Source: Chlorobiota bacterium (GTDB taxonomy: Bacteria; Bacteroidota; Bacteroidia; Bacteroidales; F082). From it: 46,081 bases of DNA. The position numbers were made by a program, and so were the translations under genes. Positions 17,927 through 32,960 of this stretch are shown here, piece after piece. The stretch is taken from NCBI GenBank assembly GCA_013151505.1, contig JAADID010000175.1, positions 1 through 46,081 of the forward strand, given 5' to 3'. Within the stretch, counting starts at the first letter, position 1; each line of letters opens with the position of its first letter. The notes beneath the pieces were generated by a model, which searched no databases, had not been told where the DNA came from, and saw nothing but the letters and a program-made list of their open reading frames with translations.

Positions 17927-19180
17927 CTATTTCAGAAAAATCATACGTCGTACTTTTCGGGAATCTTTCAGTTTAAGCTCATAAAAGTATATCCCGTTTC
18001 CGACCGGCTGCCCGTCATCACTGTTTCCATCCCAAAACAGGGCGCGTCCGTTGTCAGTATAATTTCCTTTTTTCAATAAGCCCGGATTGAACGTACGGAC
18101 AATCGTTCCTTTTAAGTTGTATATTTTGATTGTTACCTCTTCATCAACTGCCAAAATAAACGGAATCCAGGTGCCTTCCCTGAAAGGGTTCGGATAATTT
18201 TGCAATAGGTCACTGCTGACCGGCAGATTTTCATTCGGGTCATCCAGTCCGCCGGCTTTGGCGCTGAAAACATCTATCGAACCGTTATTCATTGAAGTTA
18301 TCCAGATTCGGTTACGTGAATCTATGGCAATATCCATCGGGGCGCTCAACTGTCCCGGCTCTGTTCCGAATTCACCGAACTTTGTAATAAAGCTGCCGTT
18401 TTCATCAAATATATTCACCGTTCCCAGCAGGTTATCAAGCACATAAACCCTGCCCCGGTTGTCAACAGCCAGCCCCTGGATTCTTGTGAGCTGTCCGTCT
18501 TCAAAACCGAATTCTCCGAAAGTATTCAGTAAATTGCCTTTTGTATCAAAGACGAGAACCTTTGCCGTAATCCCGTTTTCAGTTGCATCAAGCCCTGAAA
18601 CCGTGCCGCCGTGCTCGGCAACAAGTATCCTGGCGTTTTTTCTGTCGTAAGCTATGCCGGTTGGATAAGCCATAACATCGCTGCCAAATGTTCTGATAAC
18701 ATTTCCCGACAAATCCATGACGATAACCTGCTTTTGTTTGCTATCTACAACATAGAGTTTATTGTCGCCGTCAAACACGGCATCGGACGGATAAGTACAG
18801 TTTGTGTAAATTTCACTATCGCCTCCGTTGAAGTCAAACTTTTTGATGGCCCCAACCTTATTATCACTTACCACAAGCTGTTTATCATCATTTACGGCGA
18901 GGGCAAGCGGAAAGCCGCCGGAGTTCACTGTGCCGAGAAACTGTCCGGAAGTATCAAATTTAACAATCTCTTTCCTGAAAGCATCGGTTACATAAACAAC
19001 ACCGTCATCATCCAGTGCTATGCGTACCGGCGATTTCAGGCCTTCTGATATTCTGAACAAGAATCCGTTATTTCCGGCTGTTTGCTGGGCAAACAAATCG
19101 GGAGTGGATACCCATATTATCAGGAGCCAGCAAACAGCGGGAAAGAAATAACTGATGGAAAACGTAAATATCTTTTTCAT
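17927..19180 (-). CDS. NHL-repeat beta-propeller protein with T9SS-type C-terminal sorting domain
   Basis: NHL-like blades ('PTGIAYD..ILVAE', 'IQGLAVDNRGRVYVLDNLLGTVNIFDENG', 'PMDIAIDSRNRIWITS'). The C-terminal 91 aa ('QNYPNPF...IKIYNLKG...WDGNSDDGQPVGNGIYFYEL...MIFLK') match the Por_Secre_tail/FlgD-Ig pattern. The ORF track starts at a TTG (19189); the ATG at 19180 ('MKKIFTF') is the more likely start. Confidence 0.85.
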   Translation of the reverse strand: MKKIFTFSISYFFPAVCWLLIIWVSTPDLFAQQTAGNNGFLFRISEGLKSPVRIALDDDGVVYVTDAFRKEIVKFDTSGQFLGTVNSGGFPLALAVNDDKQLVVSDNKVGAIKKFDFNGGDSEIYTNCTYPSDAVFDGDNKLYVVDSKQKQVIVMDLSGNVIRTFGSDVMAYPTGIAYDRKNARILVAEHGGTVSGLDATENGITAKVLVFDTKGNLLNTFGEFGFEDGQLTRIQGLAVDNRGRVYVLDNLLGTVNIFDENGSFITKFGEFGTEPGQLSAPMDIAIDSRNRIWITSMNNGSIDVFSAKAGGLDDPNENLPVSSDLLQNYPNPFREGTWIPFILAVDEEVTIKIYNLKGTIVRTFNPGLLKKGNYTDNGRALFWDGNSDDGQPVGNGIYFYELKLKDSRKVRRMIFLK

Positions 19181-19217
19181 AGGCCTCAATTTTTGTGATC
19201 GAAATATGACCAGACGA

Positions 19218-19877
19218 TTATTTATTATGGCACGTCAGACATAAAGCGCTTCCTGCATTTGATATTCGGAGTGAGAGGGAAATAGTCTGTCCCGTAGCCA
19301 CATTGTGACATCCGGAACACCCCTGCGTATTTCTGCTGATGTGCGGATCGTGGCACGAAGTGCACTGCAAATACCCTGACTGGAGGAGATCCTCGGCAAT
19401 AGTACCGCCCAACCCTGAGGGAGTAGTAGCCGGGTCATATAACCCACCATCCGTAGCAGCCAGCGCCGAACTGTACTCAAATGAAATCGGATGATCATCA
19501 CGCAGGTCTGGTGTGATGTTTCCCCAGGTAACATACCAGGTGCCACCTGTGAAACCGCCGTGATTTTCAATGGCAACAGTTCCATCGTGACAGGAAAGGC
19601 ACAACTTTGAAAAGCCATTGGGCTGTCCGGGCGTGGCATCAAGTGTGTTGCTTGTGTAAACCTGAAAAGTTGCCGATGTAACCTCGTGATTCCATAAAGG
19701 CGAATCGTTAACTTCCATGTTTGCGTTGTGAGGCGTGTGGCATGGCCGGCAGGCCTCACCGCCACTCCACGAAGCGCCCGTAAAATCGTGGTGACTATTC
19801 AATAAACCCTGGCCGAAAGAAATGAAATATAAAAAGATCAGTAGTGAAGTAAAAATAGATCTCATAGTGGTTTTCAT
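19218..19877 (-). CDS. small pentahaem c-type cytochrome (paralog family B)
   Basis: 219 aa with a signal peptide. It has 5 CXXCH motifs (CRPCH, CLSCH, CTSCH, CSGCH, CLTCH). It is collinear with the 20113..20763 and 26260..26880 products. Confidence 0.9.
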   Translation of the reverse strand: MKTTMRSIFTSLLIFLYFISFGQGLLNSHHDFTGASWSGGEACRPCHTPHNANMEVNDSPLWNHEVTSATFQVYTSNTLDATPGQPNGFSKLCLSCHDGTVAIENHGGFTGGTWYVTWGNITPDLRDDHPISFEYSSALAATDGGLYDPATTPSGLGGTIAEDLLQSGYLQCTSCHDPHISRNTQGCSGCHNVATGQTISLSLRISNAGSALCLTCHNK

Positions 19878-19952
19878 TTGACTCTAATTTATTTGGTTTG
19901 AAATAAAAAATCTGCTTCAAAAACAAGTGGTTTTTTACGTAAAATCAGTGGA

Positions 19953-19967
19953 GCAAAAATCACGCCA
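19953..19967 (-). promoter_or_regulatory. candidate sigma-54 promoter TGGCGT-N5-TTGC
   Basis: The minus strand reads TGGCGTGATTTTTGC with exact GG-N10-GC spacing. It lies 76 nt upstream of the ATG at 19877. Confidence 0.5.
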
Positions 19968-20112
19968 AAATCACTATGTTTAAATAAAACAGATAGTAGT
20001 TTACCTATTGACAATCTTCTGTTTCGTGGTACAGAGATGTTTTTTCAATAAGTATTCAGGGATTATCTTTTTGCGTATTTGACGGTTTCCCCGTCCGACT
20101 GTATGAATCAGC

Positions 20113-20763
20113 CTATATGTTGTGACAGGTTAGACACAGTGCGCTGCCTTCATTGGACTTTCTTAGAAAGTAAGAAACAGTAGCGCCACGTCCATTCGTT
20201 TCATAATGTCTTTCGGGATTTCCCGAACCCGCAATATTGTGTACATCATGGCATGATGTACATTCCAATCTGCCGTTATCCAGCAAATCTTCTTCAATCG
20301 TACCACCCAAACCGGACATCGTAACGCTTGGATCGCGCAACTTTTTATCTTTCATTGCCAGGCTCGCATCATAGACAAAAGAGACCGGGTGACTATCTCT
20401 TATATAAATCCGGGGAGAATTATTTCCTTCGGGCGCCATAACAATGTGGTTGGAAGGAGCCACTGTTTCATCATGACACGAAAGACATTGCTTTGTTTTG
20501 CCGGAAGGAAGATTCGGATAACTTTTGACTGTACTTCTGGAATATAGCTGAAAAGTCGTAGCAGTATCATGTTGGTTCCAGTTAAGTGAAGAAGGTGGAC
20601 TCATATTGTCAGACTGGGTTATATGGCACGGTCTGCACGGATTATTACTGCTCCAGGAATTCCCTTTGAAAGAATGGTGTCCGAGTGGAAATTCCTGACC
20701 CATAATAGTTGATATAGGGTTAATTAACAACATAACCGCTATATACGCCAAGAATTTAGACAT
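20113..20763 (-). CDS. small tetrahaem c-type cytochrome (paralog family C)
   Basis: 216 aa with a signal peptide. It has 4 CXXCH motifs (CRPCH, CLSCH, CTSCH, CLTCH). It is the most diverged of the three paralogs. Confidence 0.9.
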   Translation of the reverse strand: MSKFLAYIAVMLLINPISTIMGQEFPLGHHSFKGNSWSSNNPCRPCHITQSDNMSPPSSLNWNQHDTATTFQLYSRSTVKSYPNLPSGKTKQCLSCHDETVAPSNHIVMAPEGNNSPRIYIRDSHPVSFVYDASLAMKDKKLRDPSVTMSGLGGTIEEDLLDNGRLECTSCHDVHNIAGSGNPERHYETNGRGATVSYFLRKSNEGSALCLTCHNI

Positions 20764-21218
20764 CTGTTTAAATTTTTTATATTAATGATTATTAATCTGC
20801 AAAACGATCTTTAAATTTTGTTACCCGAATAATTCAATCAATTTTCTTTCGGTTTCCTGTTTCAACTCTTTATCGTATTTCAACGAACCAATTTTCATTA
20901 TGTTTCAATTTTTTTAAACTCTTTGACATTCCGGGTCGGAAACGACATCCTTCTCCCGTTAAAGACAACGAGTGCTTTTTACCTATATAAAAGGCTAAGT
21001 ACTAATGTGTCACATCAACACGCGACAATTAAGAATATCTATACAGAATTTAAAGGAAGGAAGATAAAACCGGCAATCAGGACAGGTTTAATGCCGATTA
21101 TCATTTACAATGTCTTTTTTCATTTACTTTTTCATAAATAGTAATCAAAAAGTAACTTTCATCAAATAAAAGTTGAATGGAAATCCGGCTTTAATCAAAG
21201 GGGAAGACTGAAAATTGT

Positions 21219-22523
21219 TTAATTTCTTTTATACTCTCTTCTGGCATGGCACCCGGTCAGGCAGGAACCTCCGTTTTGAGTGACCTGATATTTTATCGGC
21301 ATTTCCCAGTTTCCAAAGGCTACACTACCTGCTATAAGATGTTCATATTGCGATCCGTGCATTTTATGGCAATCCTTGCAACTTCGCCCTTTATTTCCAT
21401 GAATATGGGCATAATGCAGGTTTTGATCCCCGTTTCTGAAACCGGTAGCGGATTTTGTTGTCTTTTTTTCGATTAAATCCGTGTCGTGACAAGTAAAACA
21501 CAATGCAAAGGTGTCGGGTTGTGCAGGGGCATAAAATCCGACAGGAAAAGCGTCCTGTAACAACGAAGGGAAAACGGAGGCATGTGGAAAATGACATCCT
21601 GAACAACCGACAAGCTCAATAGCGCCATGAATGACTTTGCTTTTGCTCAATATCTGTTTCATGTTGCTTATCTTTTTCGTCTCTGTTTTAATTGTCCGGT
21701 TATGGCAACTCAAACATAACTCCTGATTTTCTTTCAGAAGAAAATACTCCTGCGGCGAGGCATGAGGTGAATGGCAATTCACACAGGTTTCTTTAATTTT
21801 AACTGCACCATGGACAACGGGTTTACTGTCAACAGATTCTTTCACATCATCATGGCAGTCAAAGCAAAGGGCGGAAATCGTCTGATCAAGCAAATACTTA
21901 TCTCTTGAGCCATGTACCTGATGACAATTCCTGCAATCGTCTTCAAACGGCGGGTGCAGGTTTTTTGTCTTCATAAGTTTACCGACATCCTCGTGACATG
22001 AAAAACACAGATCGGGCATGGCGGATTTGAGCAAAGACCGGTATTTTGACTGATGCGGGTTATGGCAGGACTGACAATTTCCTTCACTTACAGGCTGGTG
22101 TCCGTTATCATGTTTCGCTATTTCCTCGTCGTGACATTCAAAACACAGAGAGGCAACCGGGTTAGCCAGTAGCAAATGTGGGTTCGCGCTACTGTGGGGG
22201 GAGTGGCACATCAGGCATTCACCGCCCTCAACCGGTGCATGGATATACTTTTTGGTGTTCTCATCATGACACATATAGCATAAAGCCGGCAATTCATCGG
22301 CCATTTTAAAAGCTTTTCCTTCCTCGCCCGGATGGGGCTTGCCGGTTGGTTCGTGGCAGTAATCACACGATTCTTCGGCAGGCGGGTGGACATTCTTGCC
22401 AGCCATCAGGTCTCCATGGCAGTCAAGGCAGGTTTTTTCCGGCTCGTCGTTTTGTCCCATGCCTTCGATGCCAAAAACAAGCAGTAAAGAAAAGATAAAG
22501 ATCATCCAAAAGTATTTCCTCAT
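21219..22523 (-). CDS. 14-haem (+1 CX3CH) c-type cytochrome built of seven tandem di-haem modules
   Basis: 434 aa with a signal peptide. 14 CXXCH motifs alternate as xCxxCHxPH and LCxxCH(D/E). A C-terminal CLTGCH is present. The start is 1 nt after the barrel gene stop. Confidence 0.9.
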   Translation of the reverse strand: MRKYFWMIFIFSLLLVFGIEGMGQNDEPEKTCLDCHGDLMAGKNVHPPAEESCDYCHEPTGKPHPGEEGKAFKMADELPALCYMCHDENTKKYIHAPVEGGECLMCHSPHSSANPHLLLANPVASLCFECHDEEIAKHDNGHQPVSEGNCQSCHNPHQSKYRSLLKSAMPDLCFSCHEDVGKLMKTKNLHPPFEDDCRNCHQVHGSRDKYLLDQTISALCFDCHDDVKESVDSKPVVHGAVKIKETCVNCHSPHASPQEYFLLKENQELCLSCHNRTIKTETKKISNMKQILSKSKVIHGAIELVGCSGCHFPHASVFPSLLQDAFPVGFYAPAQPDTFALCFTCHDTDLIEKKTTKSATGFRNGDQNLHYAHIHGNKGRSCKDCHKMHGSQYEHLIAGSVAFGNWEMPIKYQVTQNGGSCLTGCHARREYKRN

Positions 22524-22524
22524 T

Positions 22525-24501
22525 TTACCGCGATTTAAATTTCCTGATAACAGTTACATAGGCTCCATTGAAATTAAGGATTTCCCTGTTTAAATAGTTT
22601 CGCCGATAAACTTCAAGACCGAGCGTAATATACAATTTTCTGACAACCATGTTTAATTCCGTTTTGGCAATAAGATAGTTCAGTCCGATCTCGTAACCGT
22701 TTTGTTCCCTGTAACTTAATTCCAGGTTGAGCTTAATATTTCTGGTGAAACTGTATGCTATTCTCGCTGACACATCTCCATAGGTTTCATCTCTCCGGTC
22801 GGCAATTGTTATATAATATCTGAGATTACCTACGAGCGAAATCAATAGTTTCTGTTTAAAGCGCCAAAGCATGTTCCCGTTCAACCTGATTAACTGATAG
22901 GGAATGATCGTACTCTCGTAATCATCATATTCGATGCCAAAACGTGCAAACCCGACTTTGAACTTTATACCGTAAAGGTTTTGGTAAAAGTAATTTAACA
23001 CCAGTAAATCGGATGATTCCACAAAACTATAGTCTTGTTTAGCCCATCTGTAGTACACCTCAATAAACTGATCAAAAAACGTTAAACTGGCCGTAGCTGA
23101 CTGGCTTATCATATTAAACTTATAAGAACCGGGGAGCATGGCCGTATAATCCACCAGAACCGTTGCATTGTCCGGTATTTTTCCTCCGGGTATCCGTTTG
23201 ATCTCGATGTAATTATTCTGTTCAAACAACAGATAATCCAGGTCCAGATCGTAGATAACAGTACCTGTTACATCTTTTACAACGACAGACCCGATATCTG
23301 CATACGGTTGGTCGAGAAGAGTGATTTGATCATCGGACAGCACATGTTCTTCGTTAGTTACAAAAAACGGCACAGGTTCGCTTACCCTGTCAAAATAGCG
23401 ATCCAGGAAAGAATAAGAAAGATTTAAATTTCCTTTAGGTATTTTCTTGGTGTACCTGATCTCGAATGCAGTCCGCAGATCATCTTCGCTGTATATTGTG
23501 TGCTTGTTGCTGGTGTATTCCGCATAAATATTGGTTTTCAGGCTTTTGAACAGTTGATGGTTCAAATCTACCCTTCCCCTGTGCTGATTAAGCTGGTATA
23601 TCGGATTGGTGTATTGATAAAAATTATATGAACTTACCAACCTGAAATTTTTGGGTAACCTGAAGGTCATGCTACTCATCACCTGGAACCTGTTGAAATT
23701 GTCATACCCAGTTTGGTAGAAATTCGATATGAAAGTCAGCAGGTTATAGCGTCTCATCCTGTCAAACGGGATGCTGCTGTTCAGTTCAATATTGTGTATT
23801 TTATTCTCTCTTGGCTCGGGCAGGTAATATTCTGCATGAATGTAATCATCAAAACTGTAACTAAGCCTGTTGTCATCCTGAGTAAAAAAGGTTTTCGAAA
23901 CTTTAGCTTTGATGCTGCGTTGCCAGTACTTATAAACCTGATTTGTTTCTACTTCTTCCTGATCCCATTTCCCTTCCTCATACGTCACGGAAGCAGGAAG
24001 CACCCTGTTTTTGTAATAAATACCTCCTCCAAAAAATCTCCGGCTCATACGGGAATTGGTAAAGTTCTCCCGGTTTACGTAGCTTTGGCCCATATTGACA
24101 AAAGCATTCACAGTCAGCTTTTTTTCACGAAAGAATGTCGTTCTGAGGTTCAGCCTGCTCAGTGTTCTTGCATCGGAACGGTCGGGGATGCTTGAGTATT
24201 GGTCATTAAGTTTTTCAGGGTTAAATTCACCTTCAAAATCAATTTCCATCAGATTGGGGTTAACGATAAAACTTTTCGATTTCAAAAGAAATCTGCCCGA
24301 AAACAGTGTCCCGTTGATTATTTCCTCGAAGCCGGAGCCTAAAATGCGCTGCTGGTACCGGTAACGTCCTTTTACCCCCACTTCACCCGACAACAACTCC
24401 TGATTCCAGAAATGGTATATCCCTGCGCCGTTTTGCCCGAAACATTCAACGGAAACAAGCAACAACAAACCTACTAACCTTCTGAATCTCAAATCTCTCA
24501 T
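22525..24501 (-). CDS. putative outer-membrane beta-barrel (porin-like) protein
   Basis: 658 aa with a signal peptide ('LLLLVSVECFGQ'). The sequence is Tyr/Phe/Asn/Arg-rich with alternating hydrophobicity throughout, no Cys-rich or cofactor motif, and an aromatic-rich C-terminus. It is tightly packed between two cytochrome genes. Confidence 0.6.
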   Translation of the reverse strand: MRDLRFRRLVGLLLLVSVECFGQNGAGIYHFWNQELLSGEVGVKGRYRYQQRILGSGFEEIINGTLFSGRFLLKSKSFIVNPNLMEIDFEGEFNPEKLNDQYSSIPDRSDARTLSRLNLRTTFFREKKLTVNAFVNMGQSYVNRENFTNSRMSRRFFGGGIYYKNRVLPASVTYEEGKWDQEEVETNQVYKYWQRSIKAKVSKTFFTQDDNRLSYSFDDYIHAEYYLPEPRENKIHNIELNSSIPFDRMRRYNLLTFISNFYQTGYDNFNRFQVMSSMTFRLPKNFRLVSSYNFYQYTNPIYQLNQHRGRVDLNHQLFKSLKTNIYAEYTSNKHTIYSEDDLRTAFEIRYTKKIPKGNLNLSYSFLDRYFDRVSEPVPFFVTNEEHVLSDDQITLLDQPYADIGSVVVKDVTGTVIYDLDLDYLLFEQNNYIEIKRIPGGKIPDNATVLVDYTAMLPGSYKFNMISQSATASLTFFDQFIEVYYRWAKQDYSFVESSDLLVLNYFYQNLYGIKFKVGFARFGIEYDDYESTIIPYQLIRLNGNMLWRFKQKLLISLVGNLRYYITIADRRDETYGDVSARIAYSFTRNIKLNLELSYREQNGYEIGLNYLIAKTELNMVVRKLYITLGLEVYRRNYLNREILNFNGAYVTVIRKFKSR

Positions 24502-24508
24502 TATCCTT

Positions 24509-25078
24509 TCAGTTCAAAATAAACCTGTCCTCACCGCCATGCGGGTTATGACATTCCGTACAATCGGCATCTTCGATATCGGAATGTGCCTCATTTTTAA
24601 ATACATCTTTGGAAAGGTGGCAATTCAGGCACAAATTCTGCCCTGTCCTGATAAGTAAAAATTTGTTTTTACTCATGTGCGGATTATGGCATTGCGTACA
24701 AAAGCCTGCATCAACAGGCCCGTGTAACACTTGATACTGGTCCCCGAAACTTTCGTGGCATTGATAGCAAAGCCCCGGTAAGGGCTCAAGCAATTTTCCC
24801 ATTTGTCCCTGGTTGTGGCAGTTGGCACATTCTTTTTCCTGATAAGGTGGATGAAATATATATTCGGACTTTACCACACGGATAGTCTTAGTTTCCTTAC
24901 TGCCAGCCATTCTGATGGAATCAGCCCGTGCAATACTGTCTGCTTTATATGGATTCGGTACCCCGTCAAAAAAAAAGGAAAGCGTTTTATAATGTGTCTT
25001 TGGTGAGCATGAAATCATCAATGCGAAAGCAAAAGCAAGCAAGATAACTTTTATGTGTAGATCCCTGCGCATCGGCAT
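24509..25078 (-). CDS. pentahaem c-type cytochrome lipoprotein
   Basis: 189 aa with a lipobox-like 'LMISCS' and an 'FFFDGVPNP' motif. It has 5 CXXCH motifs of the same di-haem module type as the 14-haem protein. Confidence 0.9.
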   Translation of the reverse strand: MPMRRDLHIKVILLAFAFALMISCSPKTHYKTLSFFFDGVPNPYKADSIARADSIRMAGSKETKTIRVVKSEYIFHPPYQEKECANCHNQGQMGKLLEPLPGLCYQCHESFGDQYQVLHGPVDAGFCTQCHNPHMSKNKFLLIRTGQNLCLNCHLSKDVFKNEAHSDIEDADCTECHNPHGGEDRFILN

Positions 25079-25087
25079 CCCCGCTTA

Positions 25088-26158
25088 TCATTTGGGCTCT
25101 ACATAACCATATACATTCACTTTATCAGGACCATACTGGTTGGTAACGAATATCAGGTATTTGAGTCGGAAACTATCGTCAACATAGTTTTCAAAGTATT
25201 TTAAATTGTCATAGTCAATAACCACCTTTGCTGGCAACCACATACCACCCGGACCTTTGTAGGGACCTCCGAAAAACATCAACAGATTCCCATCTTTATC
25301 GAATATCTGAATATTCTCAAATCCTGCATCCACAACGTACAGGTGTCCATCTCTGTCAACAGCGATACCTTTGGGACGAACAAACTGACCGATGCTTTTC
25401 CCGTAACTACCCACAGACCTTACGAACTCGCCGTCATGGGTATAAACTTTTATCCTGAAATCCCCAAAATCAGTAACATATACATATTTATCGGTAACAT
25501 AGATGTTGGATGGTGAAAACAGGAAATCTTTATCCCCCGGCTCTGCATCGGGAATGCGTTTTAACAGTTTGTAATCATCTTTGTTGTACACATCAATACT
25601 ATGGCTTGTGAAATTGGCAACCCATATTTTATTATCCTTCACAAAAACGTCGGTGGGTTTTGCATTTTCAGCCTCTCCAAAACTTGCCAGATAACTTCCG
25701 TCACTGTTAAAAACGACAATCTGTCTGCGTTTGGGATCAGCAACATAGAGTTTATTGTCATCATCCAGGAAACAATTAACGGGTTTTTTCAGTTGTCCCA
25801 TGCCTTCCGGGGAAAAGTAATTAAAGTTATGTTTTTCAAGATTAATGACCTCCAGCGCATCCATTTGTGTGTCACAAATATAAATTTTACCGTCGCGTAT
25901 GGCCAGGCCATAAGGTTTTACTATACCCATGTCGGGCAACTCGCCAAACAGGAATCGTGCAAATCCCGATCGTTTTCCCGTTATATCAAGTGAGCTACTG
26001 ATTTTCGTCAGGTACTGTATCCTTGTTGTGTCGGGCGGTGAGGGATAAATGATGATGTTTTCAGATGATATATTTTTATGTATCTTCCGCGAACATGATA
26101 TCGAAAGCATTAAAAACAAACTACTTATCAGGATAACATAAAGCTTTATGCCTTTCAT
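25088..26158 (-). CDS. NHL-repeat beta-propeller lipoprotein
   Basis: 356 aa with lipobox 'LSISCS'. Canonical NHL blades are present ('GQFVRPKGIAVDRDGHLYVVDAGFENIQIFDKDGNLLMFFG'). Confidence 0.85.
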   Translation of the reverse strand: MKGIKLYVILISSLFLMLSISCSRKIHKNISSENIIIYPSPPDTTRIQYLTKISSSLDITGKRSGFARFLFGELPDMGIVKPYGLAIRDGKIYICDTQMDALEVINLEKHNFNYFSPEGMGQLKKPVNCFLDDDNKLYVADPKRRQIVVFNSDGSYLASFGEAENAKPTDVFVKDNKIWVANFTSHSIDVYNKDDYKLLKRIPDAEPGDKDFLFSPSNIYVTDKYVYVTDFGDFRIKVYTHDGEFVRSVGSYGKSIGQFVRPKGIAVDRDGHLYVVDAGFENIQIFDKDGNLLMFFGGPYKGPGGMWLPAKVVIDYDNLKYFENYVDDSFRLKYLIFVTNQYGPDKVNVYGYVEPK

Positions 26159-26206
26159 AAATATAGCCCTTAAATTTTTGGATAAATATACTAAAATGCT
26201 AAGAAT

Positions 26207-26236
26207 AAAAAAGGTGATTTCTCAATCACCTTTTTT
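26207..26236 (-). terminator. rho-independent terminator after the tetrahaem gene 26260..26880
   Basis: The aaggtgat / atcacctt 8-bp perfect stem has a 6-nt loop. It is flanked by A- and T-runs, giving T-rich tails on both strands. Confidence 0.6.
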
Positions 26237-26259
26237 AAACTCATATTTTTCAAATAATG

Positions 26260-26880
26260 TTATTTGTTGTGGCAGGTCAGGCATAATGCGCTGGCTGCAT
26301 TACTTTTGACAAGCAATTTAGCCACACCTGATCCGTTGTGTACATCATGGCAGGAAGCACACTCCAATTTCGTACCGAATAACATATCAGCATCTATGGT
26401 GCCGCCCAGACCGGAGTTTGTTGTCGTCGGGTCATACAATCCACCGTCGGTGCTTGCAAGGGTAGCATCATAAACAAACGATATCGGATGGTCATCACTC
26501 AAATCCGTACCAAGAAGTTCGTCACCGGAAATGAATGTAGTTCCATTGGTTTTTCCGCCGAAATTGTCAAGTGCAACGGTTCCGTCGTGACAACTCAGAC
26601 ACAATTTCGAAATCCCGTCAGGTTGCCCTACTGTAGCATCCAGTGTGGAGGATGAATAAACAGTATACGTCGCGGTAGATAACTGGTGGTTCCACAAAGG
26701 GGCATCAGTTACGCTAATATCAGCGTGGTGCGGTGTATGGCAAACAATGCAGATTTCGCCCGATGGGTTCCAGGTTTCGCTCGAAAAATCATGAGCAGAA
26801 CCGGAAATGTTCTGTCCCAAAGTAACCTGGGCCAAAAAAAGGATAAATAATCCTGCAAAAAGTTTAATCAGTGTTTTCAT
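26260..26880 (-). CDS. small tetrahaem c-type cytochrome (paralog family A)
   Basis: 206 aa with a signal peptide. It has 4 CXXCH motifs (CIVCH, CLSCH, CASCH, CLTCH). It appears monocistronic, lying between a sigma-54 promoter candidate and a terminator. Confidence 0.9.
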   Translation of the reverse strand: MKTLIKLFAGLFILFLAQVTLGQNISGSAHDFSSETWNPSGEICIVCHTPHHADISVTDAPLWNHQLSTATYTVYSSSTLDATVGQPDGISKLCLSCHDGTVALDNFGGKTNGTTFISGDELLGTDLSDDHPISFVYDATLASTDGGLYDPTTTNSGLGGTIDADMLFGTKLECASCHDVHNGSGVAKLLVKSNAASALCLTCHNK

Positions 26881-26950
26881 TTTAATTTTGTTTAATGATT
26901 AATTAATGATTTTCTTTTTCTTTTGATAATAAATTCACATTGCAAAGATA

Positions 26951-26967
26951 TTGCAAAGTTCGTGCCT
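26951..26967 (-). promoter_or_regulatory. candidate sigma-54 promoter aGGCACG-N4-TTGCAA
   Basis: The minus strand reads AGGCACGAACTTTGCAA with exact GG-N10-GC spacing. It is a near-perfect match to TGGCACG-N4-TTGCW and lies about 73 nt upstream of the ATG at 26880. Confidence 0.6.
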
Positions 26968-27278
26968 GTTGTGATGCTTAAAGAAATTTAGAATTAATCC
27001 AAATATAGTATGTTCAACAAAAAGCCAATGGCAGATAATCAAACGCGGCTTTACAAAAATATAAAAATGTCAATACATCCGTTGTTAACCCGGTATTTAT
27101 GAATTAATGAGGTTAAGATATTCAAATCTCCGGTTTTTTTAGCCGGCTTAAAATTATCAATATTAGGGGATGATACATATAACCTGTTAGAAATTTTTGT
27201 TAAAAATCAATTTTTTTTGGGTTCCTGATAATAAAAACAACAAAATATGTGTTTATAGCAGCAGCCGCAAACAAAACC

Positions 27279-27315
27279 GGGGCATTTCACCCAGGTGGCG
27301 TGGGGCATTTCACCC
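27279..27315. repeat. 14-bp direct repeat GGGGCATTTCACCC x2 (23-bp periodicity)
   Basis: Perfect copies at 27279..27292 and 27302..27315, immediately downstream of the sigma-54 activator stop codon (27325). Confidence 0.75.
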
Positions 27316-27324
27316 TATCCCGCA

Positions 27325-28704
27325 TTACAAACCGTATTTCTTTTTTTTATACCGCAGCGCATCCCTTGAAATACCTAACATTTTCGAGGCTTTGGTTTGA
27401 TTATACTCACTTTTCTGAAGAGCTTGCAGAATTAATTGTTTTTCCAGGGTTTCCAGTGAAATGCCTTCTTCGGGAATATCAAACTGATATGGGTTTCCGG
27501 TTTCAGGCGCCTGACCGGTAACCAAAGCTGTATTAATCTCACACGGCAGGTTATCCGGTCGGATTTTATCATTATTTTCAAGAATAATGGCGCGTTCCAT
27601 TACATTGCGCAATTCCCTTATATTACCCGGCCATTTATAATGAGACATCAGTTCCAGGGCATTACGCTCAACACCCTTTATTTTTTTGTTAAACTGACTG
27701 TTGAACAGCTCTATGAAATAGTCTATCAACAAGGGGATATCTTCTTTGTGTTCCCGAAGCGGAGGAATATCAATCTGAAATACCTTCAGACGATAATATA
27801 GATCCTCCCTGAAAGTTTTTTGCTCGATGGAGTTTATAAGGTCTTTGTTCGTGGCGGCAATAATGCGAATATCCACGGGAATTTCTGAAGTGCTTCCCAG
27901 ACGCTTTATTGTTCTGTTCTCAAGCACACTCAATAGTTTTACCTGTGTAGCGAGGTTTATTTCACCGATTTCATCAAGGAAAACCGTACCCCCTTCAGCT
28001 ATTTCAAAAAGTCCCTTTTTCATTTTGGCTGCATCCGTAAAGGCTCCTTTTTCATGCCCGAAAAGTTCACTTTCAAGCAGGGTATCGGGAAAAGTAGAAC
28101 AATTAATGGTCACAAAGGGATTTTCTTTTCGACTACTTTCGTTGTGGATTGCGCGCGCAAACAAATCTTTCCCTGTTCCGCTTTCGCCCAAAAGCAAAAT
28201 GGTGGTCGTTTCGGAACGGGCAATTTTTTTGGAAATCTGGACAATTTGTTTGAAGACCGGTGACTCGCCGATAATATTGTCGAAGGTAATTTTCTCCCGT
28301 TGCTGCCGCCTCAGCAACTTGATCTCGGTATTGATGTTGATGTTGTTTTTAATGTTTTCGATGAGCAGGTTAACTTCATCAAACGAAAACGGTTTGTTAA
28401 TGTATTCGTTTGCGCCGTTTTTCATCGCCGTCACAGCGGTATCAATTGAGCCATAGGCGGTCATAAAAACAATGATGGCATCCTCGTCTATGGATTTGAT
28501 TTTTGTAATCACTTCAAGTCCCTGAATGCCGGGCAGACGGTTGTCAACAAAAACAATGTCAGGATAATATTTCTCAAACAATTCGATTCCTTCCTCGCCT
28601 GTTTCCGCCAGGTAAACCCTGTAGCCTTTTACATTTAAATGTTTCTCGAACGACCACCGGATGAGTTTTTCATCGTCAATGACCAGGATTTTCAATAACT
28701 TCAT
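27325..28704 (-). CDS. sigma-54-dependent response regulator (NtrC family)
   Basis: REC domain ('ILVIDDE', 'IVFVDNRLPG'), an AAA+ domain with Walker A 'GESGTGKD' and a 'GAFTDA' loop, then a C-terminal Fis-type HTH ('NQTKASKMLGISRDALRYKKKKYGL'). Confidence 0.95.
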   Translation of the reverse strand: MKLLKILVIDDEKLIRWSFEKHLNVKGYRVYLAETGEEGIELFEKYYPDIVFVDNRLPGIQGLEVITKIKSIDEDAIIVFMTAYGSIDTAVTAMKNGANEYINKPFSFDEVNLLIENIKNNININTEIKLLRRQQREKITFDNIIGESPVFKQIVQISKKIARSETTTILLLGESGTGKDLFARAIHNESSRKENPFVTINCSTFPDTLLESELFGHEKGAFTDAAKMKKGLFEIAEGGTVFLDEIGEINLATQVKLLSVLENRTIKRLGSTSEIPVDIRIIAATNKDLINSIEQKTFREDLYYRLKVFQIDIPPLREHKEDIPLLIDYFIELFNSQFNKKIKGVERNALELMSHYKWPGNIRELRNVMERAIILENNDKIRPDNLPCEINTALVTGQAPETGNPYQFDIPEEGISLETLEKQLILQALQKSEYNQTKASKMLGISRDALRYKKKKYGL

Positions 28705-28738
28705 GGTTGTTTCACTAAATATGCCGGTTTTAAAAAAA

Positions 28739-30190
28739 TTATCCTGTTGGTAAAATTACATAGAATCTGGTCCCTTTTGATTCTTCACTTTCAACCCGGA
28801 TTCTGCCTTTGTGTTTTTCCACAATTTCCTTGGAAATAGCGAGGCCCAGTCCTGTTCCTTCTGTGTGTGTAGTATAAAACGGGTTAAATATATTCTCTAA
28901 AACGTCCTTTGGTATCCCCGTGCCTGTGTCCTCAACGATAATCGTCACCTTCTTGTTTTCCGGGTCGTAAGCTGTTTTAAAAGTAATAACTCCTTTTTGC
29001 GGTATGGCCCGAATGGCATTCAGACCCAGGTTGTGCAAAACGTTCTCTATTTTCTCATTATCGAACGGAAATAAGGGTATGTCTTCCTGTAATTCTTGTC
29101 TGAATTCAATTTTTTTGTTCCGGGTCTGGTTTCTGATAAAAAAGATCAGCGTCCTTATTACGTCGTTTATGTTGTTCATTTCCGGGTTGATGCCGCTGGG
29201 GCGTGAAAATCTCAACATGTTTGTAATGGCATTGTTCACCCGCTCTGCCTGCCGACGGATTTCTTCAAGTATTGGTTTGTTTTCATCTTCCGGTACTTGT
29301 CTGACCAGTATTTCGGCAGCATTGGCAATACCGGTCAGGGGATTTCTGATTTCATGTGCCAGTCTTGAGGCCATCTCGCCGATGGTGGCCATTTTCCTCT
29401 TGTCGTCCAGTTCTTTTTGATGATAAATCTGAAGCTGCTGCTGTGTTTTCTGAAAAGTGTCAACCATTTCGTTAAAGCTCTTTCCAAGCTCAGCAAGTTC
29501 CCTGGATTTTGGGATGGCAATTCGTTCGTTCAGGTTTCCTTTATTTATCCGGTTGATTGTATTGTGAAAACTGTTCAGAGACCTTCTGACTAAGCGGTAA
29601 TGCACCAGAAAGGCAGAAGCCAATACAAGAAAAACGATCATAGCCGAATACCCTAAACTAAAATTCCGCATTAAGGCAATATGCTGGTTTGTCCTTTCCA
29701 AAGTTATATCAAACACAAGCATGCCCAGATATTTTTTGGAAGAGTGGTGGCATTGATAACATTCCGGTGAGTTCCGAAAGCGGATATAAGCCCATAACCC
29801 GGGTTCATTACCATCCTTATAGGACTGTATGTAAGTATCTTCCGGTAATTCGGATATTTTTTTAAACCCTAAAATTTCTCTTGAAAGCGAGTCAGGTCCT
29901 GACAGATAGACGAGGCTGTCATTCGAATTGAATAAGTATAAGCGGTAAAAATATTTGTTTTTTTTAAAACTATCCAGCAACGGATGCAATGCCTTGCCGC
30001 CAACCTGCGAAATTGTTTGCAGGAACTGGGCATGCATTATGCTTAAGCTGCTGTAAATGTCCTCTTCTGCATGTTTGTACATCTCTCTCGACATGTAGCT
30101 GTTAAATAAGAAAAGCGCAAAAAACGACATGGTACTGACCACCAGGAAAATGGTAATACTAATGATCAGTCTGAATGAATACCGCTTCAT
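28739..30190 (-). CDS. sensor histidine kinase with CXXCH-containing periplasmic domain, HAMP, HisKA and HATPase_c
   Basis: 483 aa with two TM helices (aa about 8-30 and about 176-197) flanking a loop that carries 'SPECYQCHH' (nt 29747..29761). H-box 'RLAHEIRNPLTGI' and G-box 'DTGTGI...GTGLGLAI'. Confidence 0.9.
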   Translation of the reverse strand: MKRYSFRLIISITIFLVVSTMSFFALFLFNSYMSREMYKHAEEDIYSSLSIMHAQFLQTISQVGGKALHPLLDSFKKNKYFYRLYLFNSNDSLVYLSGPDSLSREILGFKKISELPEDTYIQSYKDGNEPGLWAYIRFRNSPECYQCHHSSKKYLGMLVFDITLERTNQHIALMRNFSLGYSAMIVFLVLASAFLVHYRLVRRSLNSFHNTINRINKGNLNERIAIPKSRELAELGKSFNEMVDTFQKTQQQLQIYHQKELDDKRKMATIGEMASRLAHEIRNPLTGIANAAEILVRQVPEDENKPILEEIRRQAERVNNAITNMLRFSRPSGINPEMNNINDVIRTLIFFIRNQTRNKKIEFRQELQEDIPLFPFDNEKIENVLHNLGLNAIRAIPQKGVITFKTAYDPENKKVTIIVEDTGTGIPKDVLENIFNPFYTTHTEGTGLGLAISKEIVEKHKGRIRVESEESKGTRFYVILPTG

Positions 30191-30205
30191 AATCCTGCTT
30201 TAGAA

Positions 30206-31891
30206 TCAGTATGATTTTCTCCTGTGATTTTTTCCATGGCATTTCAGGGTACACCTGCCTTTATAAGAGCCTAAATCCTCAAAATACAGTTGGCCCATGT
30301 TATTGGGGTGAACAATACCTATATCAAAATTTATCAAATGGGTATTGTTAGTGGTATTCCCCTGTGTACTGCTTATGCCGTGCGGATCATGGCAGGCATT
30401 GCAGGGTGCATCTTCCTCCGTAATATGTTTTTTGTGAACTTTCTCCTGAAAGTTGTTACCCCCACCGATGATCTCATTCCGGTCATGGCACTGATAACAC
30501 AGTTCATAAGCTGAATAGGATTCCGGGGTATAATCCGCCGTCGTATAATTGAACTTCAGTATCTGCGGATAAATTGATCCGTGGGGCCCTGCAGGCGAAC
30601 CGGTTCCGTCGCTGGCGTGGCAATCGGTGCAATAGATCAAACTGCTCTCGGTAAGAGGAGGAATCAGGCTGGGAACATCGGGGTTGGTTCCCGGTCCGGC
30701 GATGGGGTGAAAAGACGGGTTGCCCACGTCGAACTCAAGTCTGACATTGTTCTGTTCGATTTGTCTTGACGTCGGGCTGGCCGGTTTATCGGGGCTATCA
30801 GCATGACATCTGAAACATATTTCGTACTCATATTGCACCGGATCCACATCTCCTCCTGAAAGGTTAATGCCTTTCACACCTTTGTTAAATCCACGGACAT
30901 AAGGAGCATTGGCGCTTGTATTGTTTACTGCATGAGGGTTGTGACAGTCTTCGCACTCAACATGCTTGGTCAAAACCAGCGCTCCCTCCGAAGCATCATG
31001 AATTAGATTATAAGCATAGACATCATGGATATACGCTTTGGTCAATTGAAGCTGAATGTCAGTTGATGCCACATTTCCATTATGGCAATACAGACAATTG
31101 TTCTCCTCAGCCTGATAATTCAACAGTCGTTCGTTAAGTCCGGCATTATGCGGATTATGACAATTCTCGCAGCCATTTTCAGCTACCGTGGTGTAAGGCG
31201 TATGGAACCAGGGATCATTACCCGATCCGTTCCAGGTTGCAGTAGAGTTTCGGTGACTTGATGATATCCAGTAATTCTTGTCGTGACATTGTGTGCACAG
31301 ATTAGAATATTGGGTGGTGATCACAAGAAAATCGGTGTAAATATTTTTATGCGGATCATGGCAGGCCGTACATTGCAATTTATCATTCTCGAGGACAATG
31401 GGCCAGGAGATATTGACAGGATCCACCAATTCGCCGTCGGCAGCAGCCAGGGCAGAATTGTAAACAAACGAAACCGGATGGTCATCAGTCAGGTCGGTTG
31501 TCAGGTTGGTATTTCCGGCAGGCATGACAGTGATACCCCCGCTGAAATCAATTGGCACAGGGCGGCTTAAAACACTTCCCAGCGCTATTGTTCCATCGTG
31601 ACACGAAAGACAAAGTATGGATGAACCGTCGGGCTGACCAATAACTGCCTGCGTGGTTGTGCTGTTATACAACGAATAATTCAAACCCGGATCCTCCCGG
31701 TTCCATAATGGTCCCTTCGGAGCGCTGTTGTGAGGCGTATGACAAAAAATGCATATTTCCGTTTCACTCACTGCTTTGATCTGACCCGGCCCGCTGACCG
31801 ATAAATTGTGAACCGTATTCACAATCGACTGCGAAAACAACCACGCCGGGATCAAAAACAACAGTATTAATTTAATCCTTATCATTATCAT
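30206..31891 (-). CDS. 11-haem (+1 CX3CH) c-type cytochrome; N-terminal approx. 200 aa homologous to the small tetrahaem paralogs
   Basis: 561 aa with a signal peptide. It has 11 CXXCH motifs plus a C-terminal CTLKCH. The first four haem motifs and the 'DDHPVSFVY' box are collinear with the 206-219-aa cytochromes. The gene overlaps the upstream NHL gene by 20 nt. Confidence 0.9.
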   Translation of the reverse strand: MIMIRIKLILLFLIPAWLFSQSIVNTVHNLSVSGPGQIKAVSETEICIFCHTPHNSAPKGPLWNREDPGLNYSLYNSTTTQAVIGQPDGSSILCLSCHDGTIALGSVLSRPVPIDFSGGITVMPAGNTNLTTDLTDDHPVSFVYNSALAAADGELVDPVNISWPIVLENDKLQCTACHDPHKNIYTDFLVITTQYSNLCTQCHDKNYWISSSHRNSTATWNGSGNDPWFHTPYTTVAENGCENCHNPHNAGLNERLLNYQAEENNCLYCHNGNVASTDIQLQLTKAYIHDVYAYNLIHDASEGALVLTKHVECEDCHNPHAVNNTSANAPYVRGFNKGVKGINLSGGDVDPVQYEYEICFRCHADSPDKPASPTSRQIEQNNVRLEFDVGNPSFHPIAGPGTNPDVPSLIPPLTESSLIYCTDCHASDGTGSPAGPHGSIYPQILKFNYTTADYTPESYSAYELCYQCHDRNEIIGGGNNFQEKVHKKHITEEDAPCNACHDPHGISSTQGNTTNNTHLINFDIGIVHPNNMGQLYFEDLGSYKGRCTLKCHGKNHRRKSY

Positions 31892-32960
31892 TTAAACGTC
31901 CGTTAATAAGTTGAAAAACCTGAATGCGCGAATTATAACTATCTGCAACATAAATAAAATCGTTGTCATCAATGAATATCCCCGTAGGCAGCCAGAATTT
32001 ACCGTCTTTTCTACCCTGCCCGCCAAAATAATACAGGAAGTTACCGTTCTTGTCAAAAATTTGCACGGCATGAAATAAAGCATCAACAATATAAATGTTT
32101 CCAAACGAATCGGTTGCGATTCCTTTAGGCCGTGAAAAATAACCCGTAGCATCACCTATCTCTCCAAACATGCTTATAAACTCCCCCTCGCTGTTCAGTA
32201 TCTGTACCCTGAAGTTCATTGCATCAACTATGTAAACAAGTCCTGATTTGTCAATCCAGAGGAAAGTGGGGAAATTAAATTCAAGCGGGCCGTCGCCTCT
32301 TTTGCCGATATGCCGGATCACCTTGCCCTGTAAATCCAAAACCGTGATCCTGTGCAGGGCGGTTTCCACTACCCAAACTTCATTTTTTAAAGAGGAAAAA
32401 GCAATCCCTGTCGGTTGGTCTAATTTCACCGCAGGACAAAATTCAAGTAATTTGTCTGCACTTTCATCCTTATTCAATTTAAATACTTTATTAAGCCTTG
32501 ATTCGGTAAAAAGCAGGTCGCCCTGCGGCAAAGCACAAATGCCCACCAGTGAAGTATAGTGTTGATGAAACGACTGGGGGATTTCACCCACCCCATCCTG
32601 TACTTTCAACAAACTACCCAGTCCCTGGTCAAGTACCCAGAATGAATCCGGGTTTTCGGCAAAAACGGAAATAGGCTTGCTTAAAACTATTGCCTCCTTC
32701 TTGCCAAAAAAGAACTCTGCTATCCGGTCAACCAGATTAACCTCTACCTTACTTTTCTCCGTTGGGAACTTGGTTACCAGACGTAAACGATTGATCTCAA
32801 CCCCTTTTTGATCATAAATCCCTTCCGTTTCCTGTGCCCTCACCGGTAGAAGAAAAACAAGGTACAAAAGACAAAAAACAACCGCCTTTAAGGATAGTTT
32901 ACGAAAAGAATAAATACTCAAACCGTTCATTTGCTCCATAAAATGGATTTTAAAACTCAT
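31872..32960 (-). CDS. NHL-repeat beta-propeller protein (secreted)
   Basis: 362 aa with a signal peptide. NHL blades are present ('GYFSRPKGIATDSFGNIYIVDALFHAVQIFDKNGNFLYYFG', 'PTGIFIDDNDFIYVADSYNSRIQVFQL'). Confidence 0.85.
   Translation of the reverse strand: MSFKIHFMEQMNGLSIYSFRKLSLKAVVFCLLYLVFLLPVRAQETEGIYDQKGVEINRLRLVTKFPTEKSKVEVNLVDRIAEFFFGKKEAIVLSKPISVFAENPDSFWVLDQGLGSLLKVQDGVGEIPQSFHQHYTSLVGICALPQGDLLFTESRLNKVFKLNKDESADKLLEFCPAVKLDQPTGIAFSSLKNEVWVVETALHRITVLDLQGKVIRHIGKRGDGPLEFNFPTFLWIDKSGLVYIVDAMNFRVQILNSEGEFISMFGEIGDATGYFSRPKGIATDSFGNIYIVDALFHAVQIFDKNGNFLYYFGGQGRKDGKFWLPTGIFIDDNDFIYVADSYNSRIQVFQLINGRLNDNDKD

Follow-up and report, generated by a model that had tools for sequence, protein, structure and literature searches.

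A widespread FCB-group variant of the OmcE-type nanowire locus, with OmcE paralogues whose sequences would suit pieces at the start, at a side exit and at the end of a filament

How a cytochrome nanowire is started and stopped, how it is attached to the cell, and where electrons enter and leave it are the questions raised by a gene cluster on contig JAADID010000175.1 (assembly GCA_013151505.1) of a Chlorobiota bacterium placed by GTDB in the Bacteroidales (F082), whose 46,081 nucleotides (nt) make up the window analysed here. The capping of filament ends has been left open in the literature (PMC7096707), and no tip or stopper candidate was found encoded in OmcE operons (bioRxiv 10.1101/2025.10.22.684050). 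The region between 15.6 and 33.0 kb of the window is, with high confidence as to both the type of cluster and the OmcE-family membership of its small cytochromes, an OmcE-type cytochrome nanowire locus of a Bacteroidota/FCB-group host. It is a widespread and undescribed FCB-group variant of this locus type and, judged from their sequences, its extra OmcE paralogues have the properties expected of pieces at the start, at a side exit and at the end of a filament.

A first-pass annotation of this DNA had placed, at the positions collected in Table 1, four small multihaem modules sharing one scaffold, and all of them were recovered there on the minus strand, three free-standing (A, B and C) and one (D) fused to the remainder of a 561-amino-acid (aa) cytochrome. 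The MAFFT alignment of the four copies was collinear, with 46 invariant columns covering all the motifs of the scaffold proposed earlier, and the identity to A was 57% for B, 41% for C and 45% for D (N-terminal 224 aa). Module D has four CxxCH motifs and the entire D protein, by motif count, 11 CxxCH and one CxxxCH. A profile of the four copies revealed no fifth full module in the window; the 774-aa cytochrome was considered as a candidate and rejected, its matches being generic paired-CxxCH pieces only. Nucleotide similarity among the copies was confined to short patches of 66-92% identity, which indicates that the copies are old, and this, together with the conserved cluster position of each of the orthogroups that they represent, bore out the view that the duplications are ancient and have been maintained. 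Moreover, each copy matched Geobacter sulfurreducens OmcE by BLASTP (D 4e-33, A 2e-31, B 8e-23, C 1.6e-9), which excludes a chance collinearity.

The tetrahaem cytochrome OmcE, which forms filaments, is homologous over its full length to modules A, B and C and to the first 205 aa of D. Among the PDB sequences, the four-module profile matched end to end both 7TFS, the G. sulfurreducens OmcE filament (E=1e-31), and 9YUQ (E=3.6e-28), whose 16 chains and homology make it very probably the OmcE filament bundle of D. soudanensis described in bioRxiv 10.1101/2025.10.22.684050. The likeness to an OmcE filament subunit suggested at first pass has thereby become full-length sequence homology to two filaments solved by cryo-EM. 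The D-family profile matched 7TFS with E=8.8e-42 over D residues 8-206, and A was 35% identical to G. sulfurreducens OmcE over its full length. Similarly to OmcE, the modules carry a Sec signal peptide, four CxxCH motifs in conserved order, four extra histidines, and the PLWN and DHP motifs. A genome scan gave 537 confirmed relatives, from which 80 loci were kept and their gene order mapped by BLAST, and 167 modules from these loci, the window and OmcE were used for a module tree and a synteny table; in this set, the cysteines and proximal histidines of the four motifs were invariant in 166-167 of the 167 modules. In free-standing copies exactly 2 aa follow the last CxxCH (104 of 108 locus copies, 113 of 121 library representatives), and the same two-residue tail is found in OmcE (CHKK), whereas D continues instead. 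The modules matched generic multihaem models only in Pfam and NCBIfam (Paired_CXXCH_1, Cytochrome_C7), which explains the database label "cytochrome c3 family". No overall similarity to OmcS (6EF8) was found with the four-module profile, which reached E=0.0045 on single units only, and the D-family profile did not match OmcS at E<=1.

A, B, C and D represent four ancient orthogroups, and each of these keeps to one position in the cluster. The alignment and phylogeny of the modules with their homologues, proposed earlier as a check, proved collinear and resolved these four orthogroups in the tree. The recurrent order in the 80 loci is [propeller-D]-(kinase-regulator)-A-propeller-pentahaem-barrel-large cytochrome-(B/C-like), and it was observed in Calditrichota, Bacteroidota, Ignavibacteriota/Chlorobiota, KSB1, Gemmatimonadota, Woeseiaceae, Desulfobacteraceae and others. 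Of the 80 loci, 77 carry an A-type gene, in nearly all of them directly upstream of an NHL356-type propeller gene, and the gene that follows it encodes a propeller lipoprotein in 74 loci. The D-type gene stands directly after an NHL362-type propeller gene for 56 of 58 D-type modules, with a median gap of -4 nt, and its OmcE module retains 63-84% identity across phyla. The core B-type, with the same insert as in the window, recurs in 10 other loci, usually immediately downstream of the gene of the MHC434-type large cytochrome, and the C-type likewise in 10 other loci, in nine of which it lies downstream of MHC434 or B. The closest genome locus, from a Bacteroidales metagenome-assembled genome (MAG) and here called L067, has proteins 57-80% identical to those of the window and the same order, including B, the propeller sorted by the type IX secretion system (T9SS) and the 17-haem cytochrome; its orthologue of the 774-aa cytochrome is 77% identical and in the same position. 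In two close relatives of the window, L083 and L084, A is 93% identical to that of the window, and the contigs end before the B/C region. About 7,800 homologues of A and 7,900 of D were scored in protein databases, close A-type homologues including those of Lutibacter profundi and Caldithrix abyssi, and an Ignavibacterium album MAG provided one of the loci (L064). The FCB-group phyla are absent from the five phyla listed for OmcE clusters (bioRxiv 10.1101/2025.10.22.684050), and nothing specific was found in the literature searched linking OmcE to clusters of Ignavibacteria, Bacteroidota or Calditrichota. OmcE-type nanowire loci prove very frequent among FCB-group bacteria of sediments and hydrothermal environments, which would widen the range of organisms expected to perform long-range extracellular electron transfer; several of the hosts are cultured.

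The neighbourhood of the modules points in the same direction. Nanowire-competent OmcE homologues have been chosen by their neighbours, namely a large beta-barrel, beta-propeller lipoproteins and two multihaem cytochromes (bioRxiv 10.1101/2025.10.22.684050), and this published signature is present in the window, the barrel being recognised by composition and position only. The genes lie on one strand in the order propeller, D, kinase, regulator, A, propeller lipoprotein, pentahaem cytochrome, barrel, 14-haem cytochrome, C, B, T9SS propeller and 17-haem cytochrome. The cluster and the G. sulfurreducens omcE locus share OmcE, a beta-propeller and a multihaem cytochrome: OmcE of the Geobacter locus matches both A and D, the propeller encoded upstream of D (NHL362) is 34% identical to the propeller beside omcE (NHL361; E=3e-48), and the 434-aa cytochrome is the orthologue of the 370-aa cytochrome of the omcE locus (MHC370; 36% identity, E=3e-62). 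A large barrel gene also occurs in both loci. The 658-aa protein of the window has the highest beta-amphipathic moment and aromatic content among the cluster proteins, similar to those of the Geobacter 752-aa barrel; its C-terminal aromatic residue is conserved, as is the position of its gene in about 60 loci, and no Pfam or PDB relative of it was found. Unlike the known OmcE clusters, the locus belongs to an FCB-group host and no glycosylation genes were seen in the window. Conversely, the G. sulfurreducens omcE locus lacks the haem-sensor kinase and sigma-54 regulator, the T9SS-sorted propeller and the paralogues B, C and D, none of which was found within 10 kb of omcE.

Among the four modules, A is singled out by what follows its gene. 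Between A and the downstream genes lies an intrinsic-terminator-like hairpin with a perfect stem and a U-run (fold z = -3.25), and by a crude detector a hairpin with a T-run was found after the A-type gene in 37 of 74 loci. At four other types of cluster junction it was found in 0/61, 0/60, 0/47 and 0/56 cases, the genes there being separated by about 8 nt or overlapping. A terminator of the same kind follows Geobacter omcE, and a terminator after the gene of a structural subunit is the usual arrangement where that subunit is made in large excess over its assembly machinery. Given that A is universal and followed by the hairpin, it is taken as the major subunit, and it probably is the one that polymerises.

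Expression is probably controlled from within the locus. The sensor histidine kinase has a CxxCH motif (PECYQCH, residues ~143-147) in its N-terminal sensor region, found in 22 of 22 orthologues, which suggests a haem-based redox sensor that would control the nanowire genes through the adjacent sigma-54 activator, and a sigma-54 regulator gene lies directly upstream of the A-type gene in 29 loci. A sigma-54-like element, AGGCACGAACTTTGC, with one mismatch to TGGCAC-N5-TTGC, adjoins the activator gene upstream of A; it is a weak lead, and its GG and TTTG cores are kept in L083, L084 and L067. The region upstream of A (26881..27080, minus strand) also contains the conserved blocks ATTTGGAT..ATTCTAAATTTC beside the sigma-54-like AGGCAC-N5-TTTGC, and both blocks are common to L083, L084 and L067, the last at 72% protein identity. 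A general sigma-54 promoter upstream of A-type genes was not supported, with matches in 5 of 87 regions against a background of 2.8%, which is no enrichment; conservation of the site was limited to the nearest relatives.

What would hold such a filament together can be approached through the histidine ligands. The DHP and DxH histidines and the four proximal histidines are invariant in the 167 modules and the HDF histidine is present in 165, while the CHTPH histidine (A residue 51) is missing in 11, all of them C-type. A, B and D keep all four distal histidines, and window C lacks that of CHTPH, reading CRPCHITQ at this site, as the first-pass annotation had seen. A phmmer search with C against 1.84 billion protein representatives gave 1,983 hits, and in the 134 full modules among the best 150 of them H131 and H181 were present in 134/134 and H51 in 82/134 (52 without); 16 of the 20 top hits lack H51. 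The residues that replace it follow no pattern (S, T, P, E, Q, D, A, R, K, G and others) and Met is not among them.

In OmcS the distal ligand of haem 5 is supplied by the neighbouring subunit (PMC7096707, PMC6584659), and OmcE shares this inter-subunit ligation by histidine, its haems superimposing on OmcS haems 1-4 (PMC9473688). The OmcE family has an internal repeat, [His ... CxxCHxxH ... CxxCH], which occurs twice, and OmcS likewise has a repeating di-haem unit [CxxCHxxH ... CxxCH] with a +3 His in its first haem motif. This +3 His ligates the penultimate haem of the neighbouring OmcS subunit; we take the donor to be His16, which in 6EF8 numbering is the +3 His of CEGCH13TMH16. From this analogy and from the periodicity of the repeat, the TPH histidine would be the inter-subunit donor, ligating haem 3 of the preceding subunit, and haem 1 would have the +3 His of haem 3 as its ligand. 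The earlier view that the four non-motif histidines suffice for bis-His ligation of four haems stands as regards their conservation and not as regards an intramolecular arrangement, since a neighbour ligates one haem in OmcE and OmcS. Similarly, the ITQ of C, first read as an altered ligation of haem 1, is probably instead the loss of the histidine given to the neighbour, in line with the His16 analogy and the family-wide patterns.

The other three modules depart from A in distinct ways. The fifth motif of B, CSGCH, belongs to a conserved stretch, SRNTQGCxGCH, that is inserted between those of haem 3 and haem 4. B corresponds to the 5-CxxCH OmcE-like class of bioRxiv 10.1101/2025.10.22.684050, in that it has an OmcE-like length, all OmcE ligands and one extra CxxCH; proteins of this class have been proposed as a possible new "leaky" nanowire family, and AlphaFold3 puts their extra haem at the surface (same preprint). 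Unlike those proteins, B is encoded inside an omcE-type cluster beside a 4-haem copy, which suggests a minor subunit and not a separate nanowire. A second 5-haem OmcE-like type, with the extra CxxCH between DHP and the haem-3 motif and with a fifth haem of independent origin, is encoded right after the A-type gene in two other loci (L044:10661-11365, L058:10726-11361).

The C-type is degenerate in its N-terminal third, PLWN motif included. At conserved positions, its identity to the A-type consensus is 0.27 in the N-terminal arm, 0.34 from the haem-1 motif to PLWN and 0.73/0.73 in the C-terminal half, which is as near to the A-type consensus as that of the B-type. The C-types closest to window C carry a CxxCP (CRSCPP, CSTCPP, CSSCPT) at the site of the B-type fifth CxxCH (Table 1), and window C has an insert without cysteines at this site; from these sequences the C-type seems to be derived from a 5-haem B-like ancestor with loss of the extra haem.

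In the D-type the pattern of divergence is the mirror image of this, with identities to the same consensus of 0.38 in the N-terminal arm, 0.74 from the haem-1 motif to PLWN and 0.49/0.59 in the C-terminal half. D is composed of six [CxxCHxxH + CxxCH]-like di-haem units, with eight haem sites beyond the OmcE module, and for its 12 haems it offers 26 invariant histidines, of which 14 are non-proximal. In this it resembles a longer OmcS-like wire; unlike D, the hexahaem OmcS is the subunit of a homopolymer and has no fused OmcE module. No relative of the C-terminal 356 aa was found among PDB sequences. The C-terminus (30206..30250, minus strand, residues 547-556) has an invariant CTLKCH, probably the twelfth haem site with an unusual three-residue spacer (CxxxCH), followed by GKNH with an invariant His at +4 that is possibly a self-capping ligand. 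An OmcE-like module was also found inside cytochromes of 459-1400 aa with 8-20 CxxCH (P0362, P0364, P0375, P0399, P0402, P0408), internal in some and without the TPH histidine in some, and these several architectures indicate that the fusion of OmcE modules to longer haem wires is recurrent.

On balance, and with modest confidence, we favour an OmcE-type nanowire system in which A serves as major subunit alongside B, C and D as specialised minor OmcE-like components. The hairpin would split A from the downstream genes and so lead to A being made in excess, and the propeller lipoprotein, the pentahaem lipoprotein, the barrel and the 14-haem cytochrome would provide the machinery for outer-membrane export, anchoring and electron conduction. 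A would polymerise head to tail, the +3 His of its first motif (CHTPH) being donated to haem 3 of the preceding subunit in a manner resembling that of OmcS His16 to haem 5 of the neighbour. B would be an A-like "leaky" variant of the subunit whose fifth haem is probably solvent-exposed. C has lost the donor histidine and the donor-side third and kept an A-like acceptor side, and a protein that accepts and cannot donate would fit only as the first subunit, at the filament start. D keeps the donor side, and its acceptor side continues covalently into four more di-haem units; a protein that donates and has no standard acceptor end would fit only as the last subunit. The His of CENCHNPH in D may take the place of the TPH histidine of the next subunit and satisfy D's own haem 3, and D would thus add a 12-haem wire to the filament, as anchor or as tip. 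Expression is probably under the control of the haem-binding sensor kinase and the sigma-54 activator, whose genes lie between D and A. The predicted product is a polar heteropolymer C-(A, some B)n-D; the complete scheme, with C as starter or tip, A as major subunit, B as 5-haem side exit and D as 12-haem terminator or anchor, is tentative and unlikely to hold in every part, the end-cap roles of C and D being inference only. Sequence cannot tell which end of such a filament would face the cell.

Several observations weigh against this reading. The polymerisation of the FCB-branch proteins is predicted from homology, and the identity to the two solved OmcE subunits is only 31-38% for A, B and D and 22-27% for C. 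The assignment of the donor is indirect, through the OmcS analogy and its His16, and H30 in the N-terminal arm is an alternative donor, the four clear substitutions of H30 all being found in proteins without H51. The A-type has a ninth invariant histidine, H65 in PLWNH, and nine histidines have been given as the mark of a non-extending "stopper" (bioRxiv 10.1101/2025.10.22.684050). H65, which complicates plain histidine counting as a test for stoppers, is also present in most B-types, and D and both solved OmcEs have Arg there. OmcE-like tetrahaems are widespread and need not all be nanowires (same preprint). The physiological role of cytochrome filaments is itself disputed (PMC11077965). Moreover, A rather than D cannot be assigned as the orthologue of Geobacter OmcE, which scores similarly with the D-type (167 bits) and A-type (139 bits) profiles, and the 658-aa barrel showed no detectable relationship to its 752-aa counterpart in Geobacter (hhalign probability 0.2). 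The AlphaFold2 models were unusable, with mean pLDDT of 40.5 for A (40-sequence alignment) and 38.4 for D (45 sequences), a low confidence that is expected for coil-rich, haem-dependent folds. Finally, among 43 loci with enough downstream sequence the B-type was found in nine and the C-type in 10, so neither is an essential part.

Of the other explanations, the one that survives best, unlikely as we hold it to be, is a porin-cytochrome conduit made of the barrel and the 189-aa and 434-aa cytochromes, with A, B and C as monomeric periplasmic or surface carriers. The order of a periplasmic-type cytochrome, a barrel and a large cytochrome is like that of Pcc/Mtr clusters, such as MtrCAB and Geobacter OmaB-OmbB-OmcB, with the three genes side by side and only 1-9 nt between them. 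In contrast to those conduits, the window proteins have no family-level match and the barrel has no relative in Pfam or the PDB: the 434-aa and 189-aa proteins matched the MtrA/DmsE family below threshold (TIGR03508, 149 bits against a cut-off of 192), and likewise the GSU2203 decahaem model (NF041028, 125 against 325); these matches speak for the conduit, far below the cut-offs as they are. The nine invariant histidines of the A-type would in principle be enough for self-ligation of four haems, but H65 lies in PLWN beside haem 1, where the solved OmcEs have their Arg, and is unlikely to reach haem 3. The occurrence of OmcE-like tetrahaems outside nanowire loci (bioRxiv 10.1101/2025.10.22.684050) is compatible with soluble carriers; it is set against full-length homology to two solved filament subunits, ligand positions and two-residue tail included, against three protein families common to the cluster and the Geobacter omcE locus, and against a terminator after A that fits a structural protein in large excess.

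It is slightly less probable again that A, B and C are alternative majors, each forming its own homopolymer according to conditions, as OmcS, OmcE and OmcZ do in Geobacter, with D unrelated to filaments. In favour of this, B retains all eight ligand histidines together with the two interface halves, a separate gap of 235 nt containing a weak sigma-54-like site lies upstream of it, and it belongs to the class for which a separate 5-haem OmcE-like nanowire family is proposed (bioRxiv 10.1101/2025.10.22.684050). However, 11 of 12 junctions from MHC434 to B have no terminator-like hairpin, and the next gene starts 28 nt after B. The C-type, in which the presumed donor histidine is missing and the N-terminal third is degenerate, would form no canonical His-bridged homopolymer, and the strong conservation of the OmcE module of D across phyla argues against its being unrelated to filaments.

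Less probable still is that the C-type is no filament starter and that one of its haems is deliberately open or otherwise ligated, serving catalysis or sensing. One axial-type histidine has been lost in a conserved and widespread manner, and a five-coordinate terminal haem has been suggested as a possible catalytic site (PMC7096707). Nevertheless, the replacement residues are unconstrained, with no conserved Met, Lys or Tyr, and the entire N-terminal third including PLWN decays, rather than forming a new conserved pocket.

The least probable reading, in which the 561-aa, 12-haem D is itself a homopolymer, a double-length OmcS whose TPH histidine reaches haem 11 of the next copy while A is accessory, is favoured by the six OmcS/OmcE-like di-haem units with the donor histidine kept, by the higher D-type profile score of the solved OmcE and by the Geobacter propeller-omcE gene pair that mirrors the NHL362-D pair, and is held improbable in view of a D gene that overlaps the propeller gene and is followed by a terminator at 0/19 and 0/19 junctions, which suggests low, stoichiometric expression, of a C-terminus (CTLKCHGKNH + 5 aa, with invariant H556) that breaks the two-residue tail rule, and of non-proximal invariant histidines numerous enough for self-capping.

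If the complete polar scheme is true, these proteins would supply, for the first time from within a cluster, candidates for capping, initiating and anchoring nanowires, in a solution common to thousands of uncultured Bacteroidota, Calditrichota and Ignavibacteriota. The candidates are defined by sequence, through the interface half that is kept, the presence of the donor histidine and the continuation of the chain past haem 4. By analogy only, the arrangement recalls chaperone-usher and type IV pili, in which the major-subunit gene is followed by an attenuating terminator and minor paralogues keep one of two polymerisation interfaces; the proteins are unrelated to those of pili, and here haem-histidine coordination would replace donor-strand exchange.

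Table 1. Positions of the modules, neighbouring genes and sequence elements; positions without a prefix refer to the window.
Feature	Position	Strand	Description
Module A	26260..26880	-	206 aa; 4 CxxCH; tetrahaem; OmcE family
Module B	19218..19877	-	219 aa; 5 CxxCH; pentahaem; OmcE family
Module C	20113..20763	-	216 aa; 4 CxxCH; tetrahaem; OmcE family; CHITQ in place of CHTPH
Module D	gene 30206..31891	-	561-aa cytochrome; OmcE-like module at aa ~21-205 (nt ~31277..31831)
Intrinsic-terminator-like hairpin	26207..26236	-	AAAAAAGGUGAUU-GAGA-AAUCACCUUUUUU and U-run; between A and the downstream genes
Sigma-54-like -24/-12 element	26953..26967	-	AGGCACGAACTTTGC; 72 nt upstream of the A start codon
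NHL-repeat six-bladed beta-propeller	31872..32960	-	Pfam NHL/DUF5128; gene overlaps the start of D
Sensor histidine kinase	28739..30190	-	HAMP/HisKA/HATPase; CxxCH in the predicted outer N-terminal sensor region
NtrC-type sigma-54-dependent response regulator	27325..28704	-	Pfam Response_reg, Sigma54_activat and HTH_8
NHL beta-propeller lipoprotein	25088..26158	-	Pfam NHL/DUF5128; lipobox LSIS|C from sequence
189-aa pentahaem lipoprotein cytochrome	24509..25078	-	5 CxxCH; Paired_CXXCH_1 x3; 9-nt gene gap
658-aa probable outer-membrane beta-barrel	22525..24501	-	from composition and position
434-aa cytochrome (MHC434)	21219..22523	-	14 CxxCH; Paired_CXXCH_1 x7
NHL beta-propeller with type IX secretion sorting domain	17927..19189	-	Pfam NHL; NCBIfam TIGR04183 Por_Secre_tail above cut-off
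774-aa cytochrome	15577..17901	-	17 CxxCH; distal end of the cluster
C-type genes bearing CxxCP	L003:6668-7285, L011:16479-17111, L033:11756-12388		

Some features of the neighbouring genes are also worth recording. Both in the window and in L067, B is followed by the T9SS-sorted NHL propeller and the 17-haem cytochrome. It seems that a surface component sorted by the T9SS, without a Geobacter counterpart, was recruited to the nanowire cluster. Moreover, at least eight cluster proteins have a Gln as the first residue behind the predicted cleavage site of signal peptidase I (TLG|Q, SFG|Q, IMG|Q, LFS|Q, GMG|Q, CFG|Q, LFA|Q and VRA|Q in the proteins with minus-strand starts at 26880, 19877, 20763, 31891, 22523, 24501, 19189 and 32960, respectively), which fits the Bacteroidetes "Q-rule" of an N-terminal pyroglutamate and, together with the T9SS domain, supports a Bacteroidota host. 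In the Geobacter locus, a 330-aa cytochrome encoded beside omcE (L081:7290-8282) ends in CISCHNPH...LCQMCHNK-stop, and this OmcE-like last di-haem unit with a two-residue tail might represent an OmcE-type acceptor end; alternatively, the likeness is generic paired-CxxCH similarity only (domain E=1.9e-6). Elsewhere in the window, an AbiEii nucleotidyltransferase toxin gene (1764..3391, plus strand; Pfam E=2e-37) is preceded by an overlapping 268-aa open reading frame without Pfam match, and the two are probably an AbiE-type toxin-antitoxin pair unrelated to the nanowire cluster.

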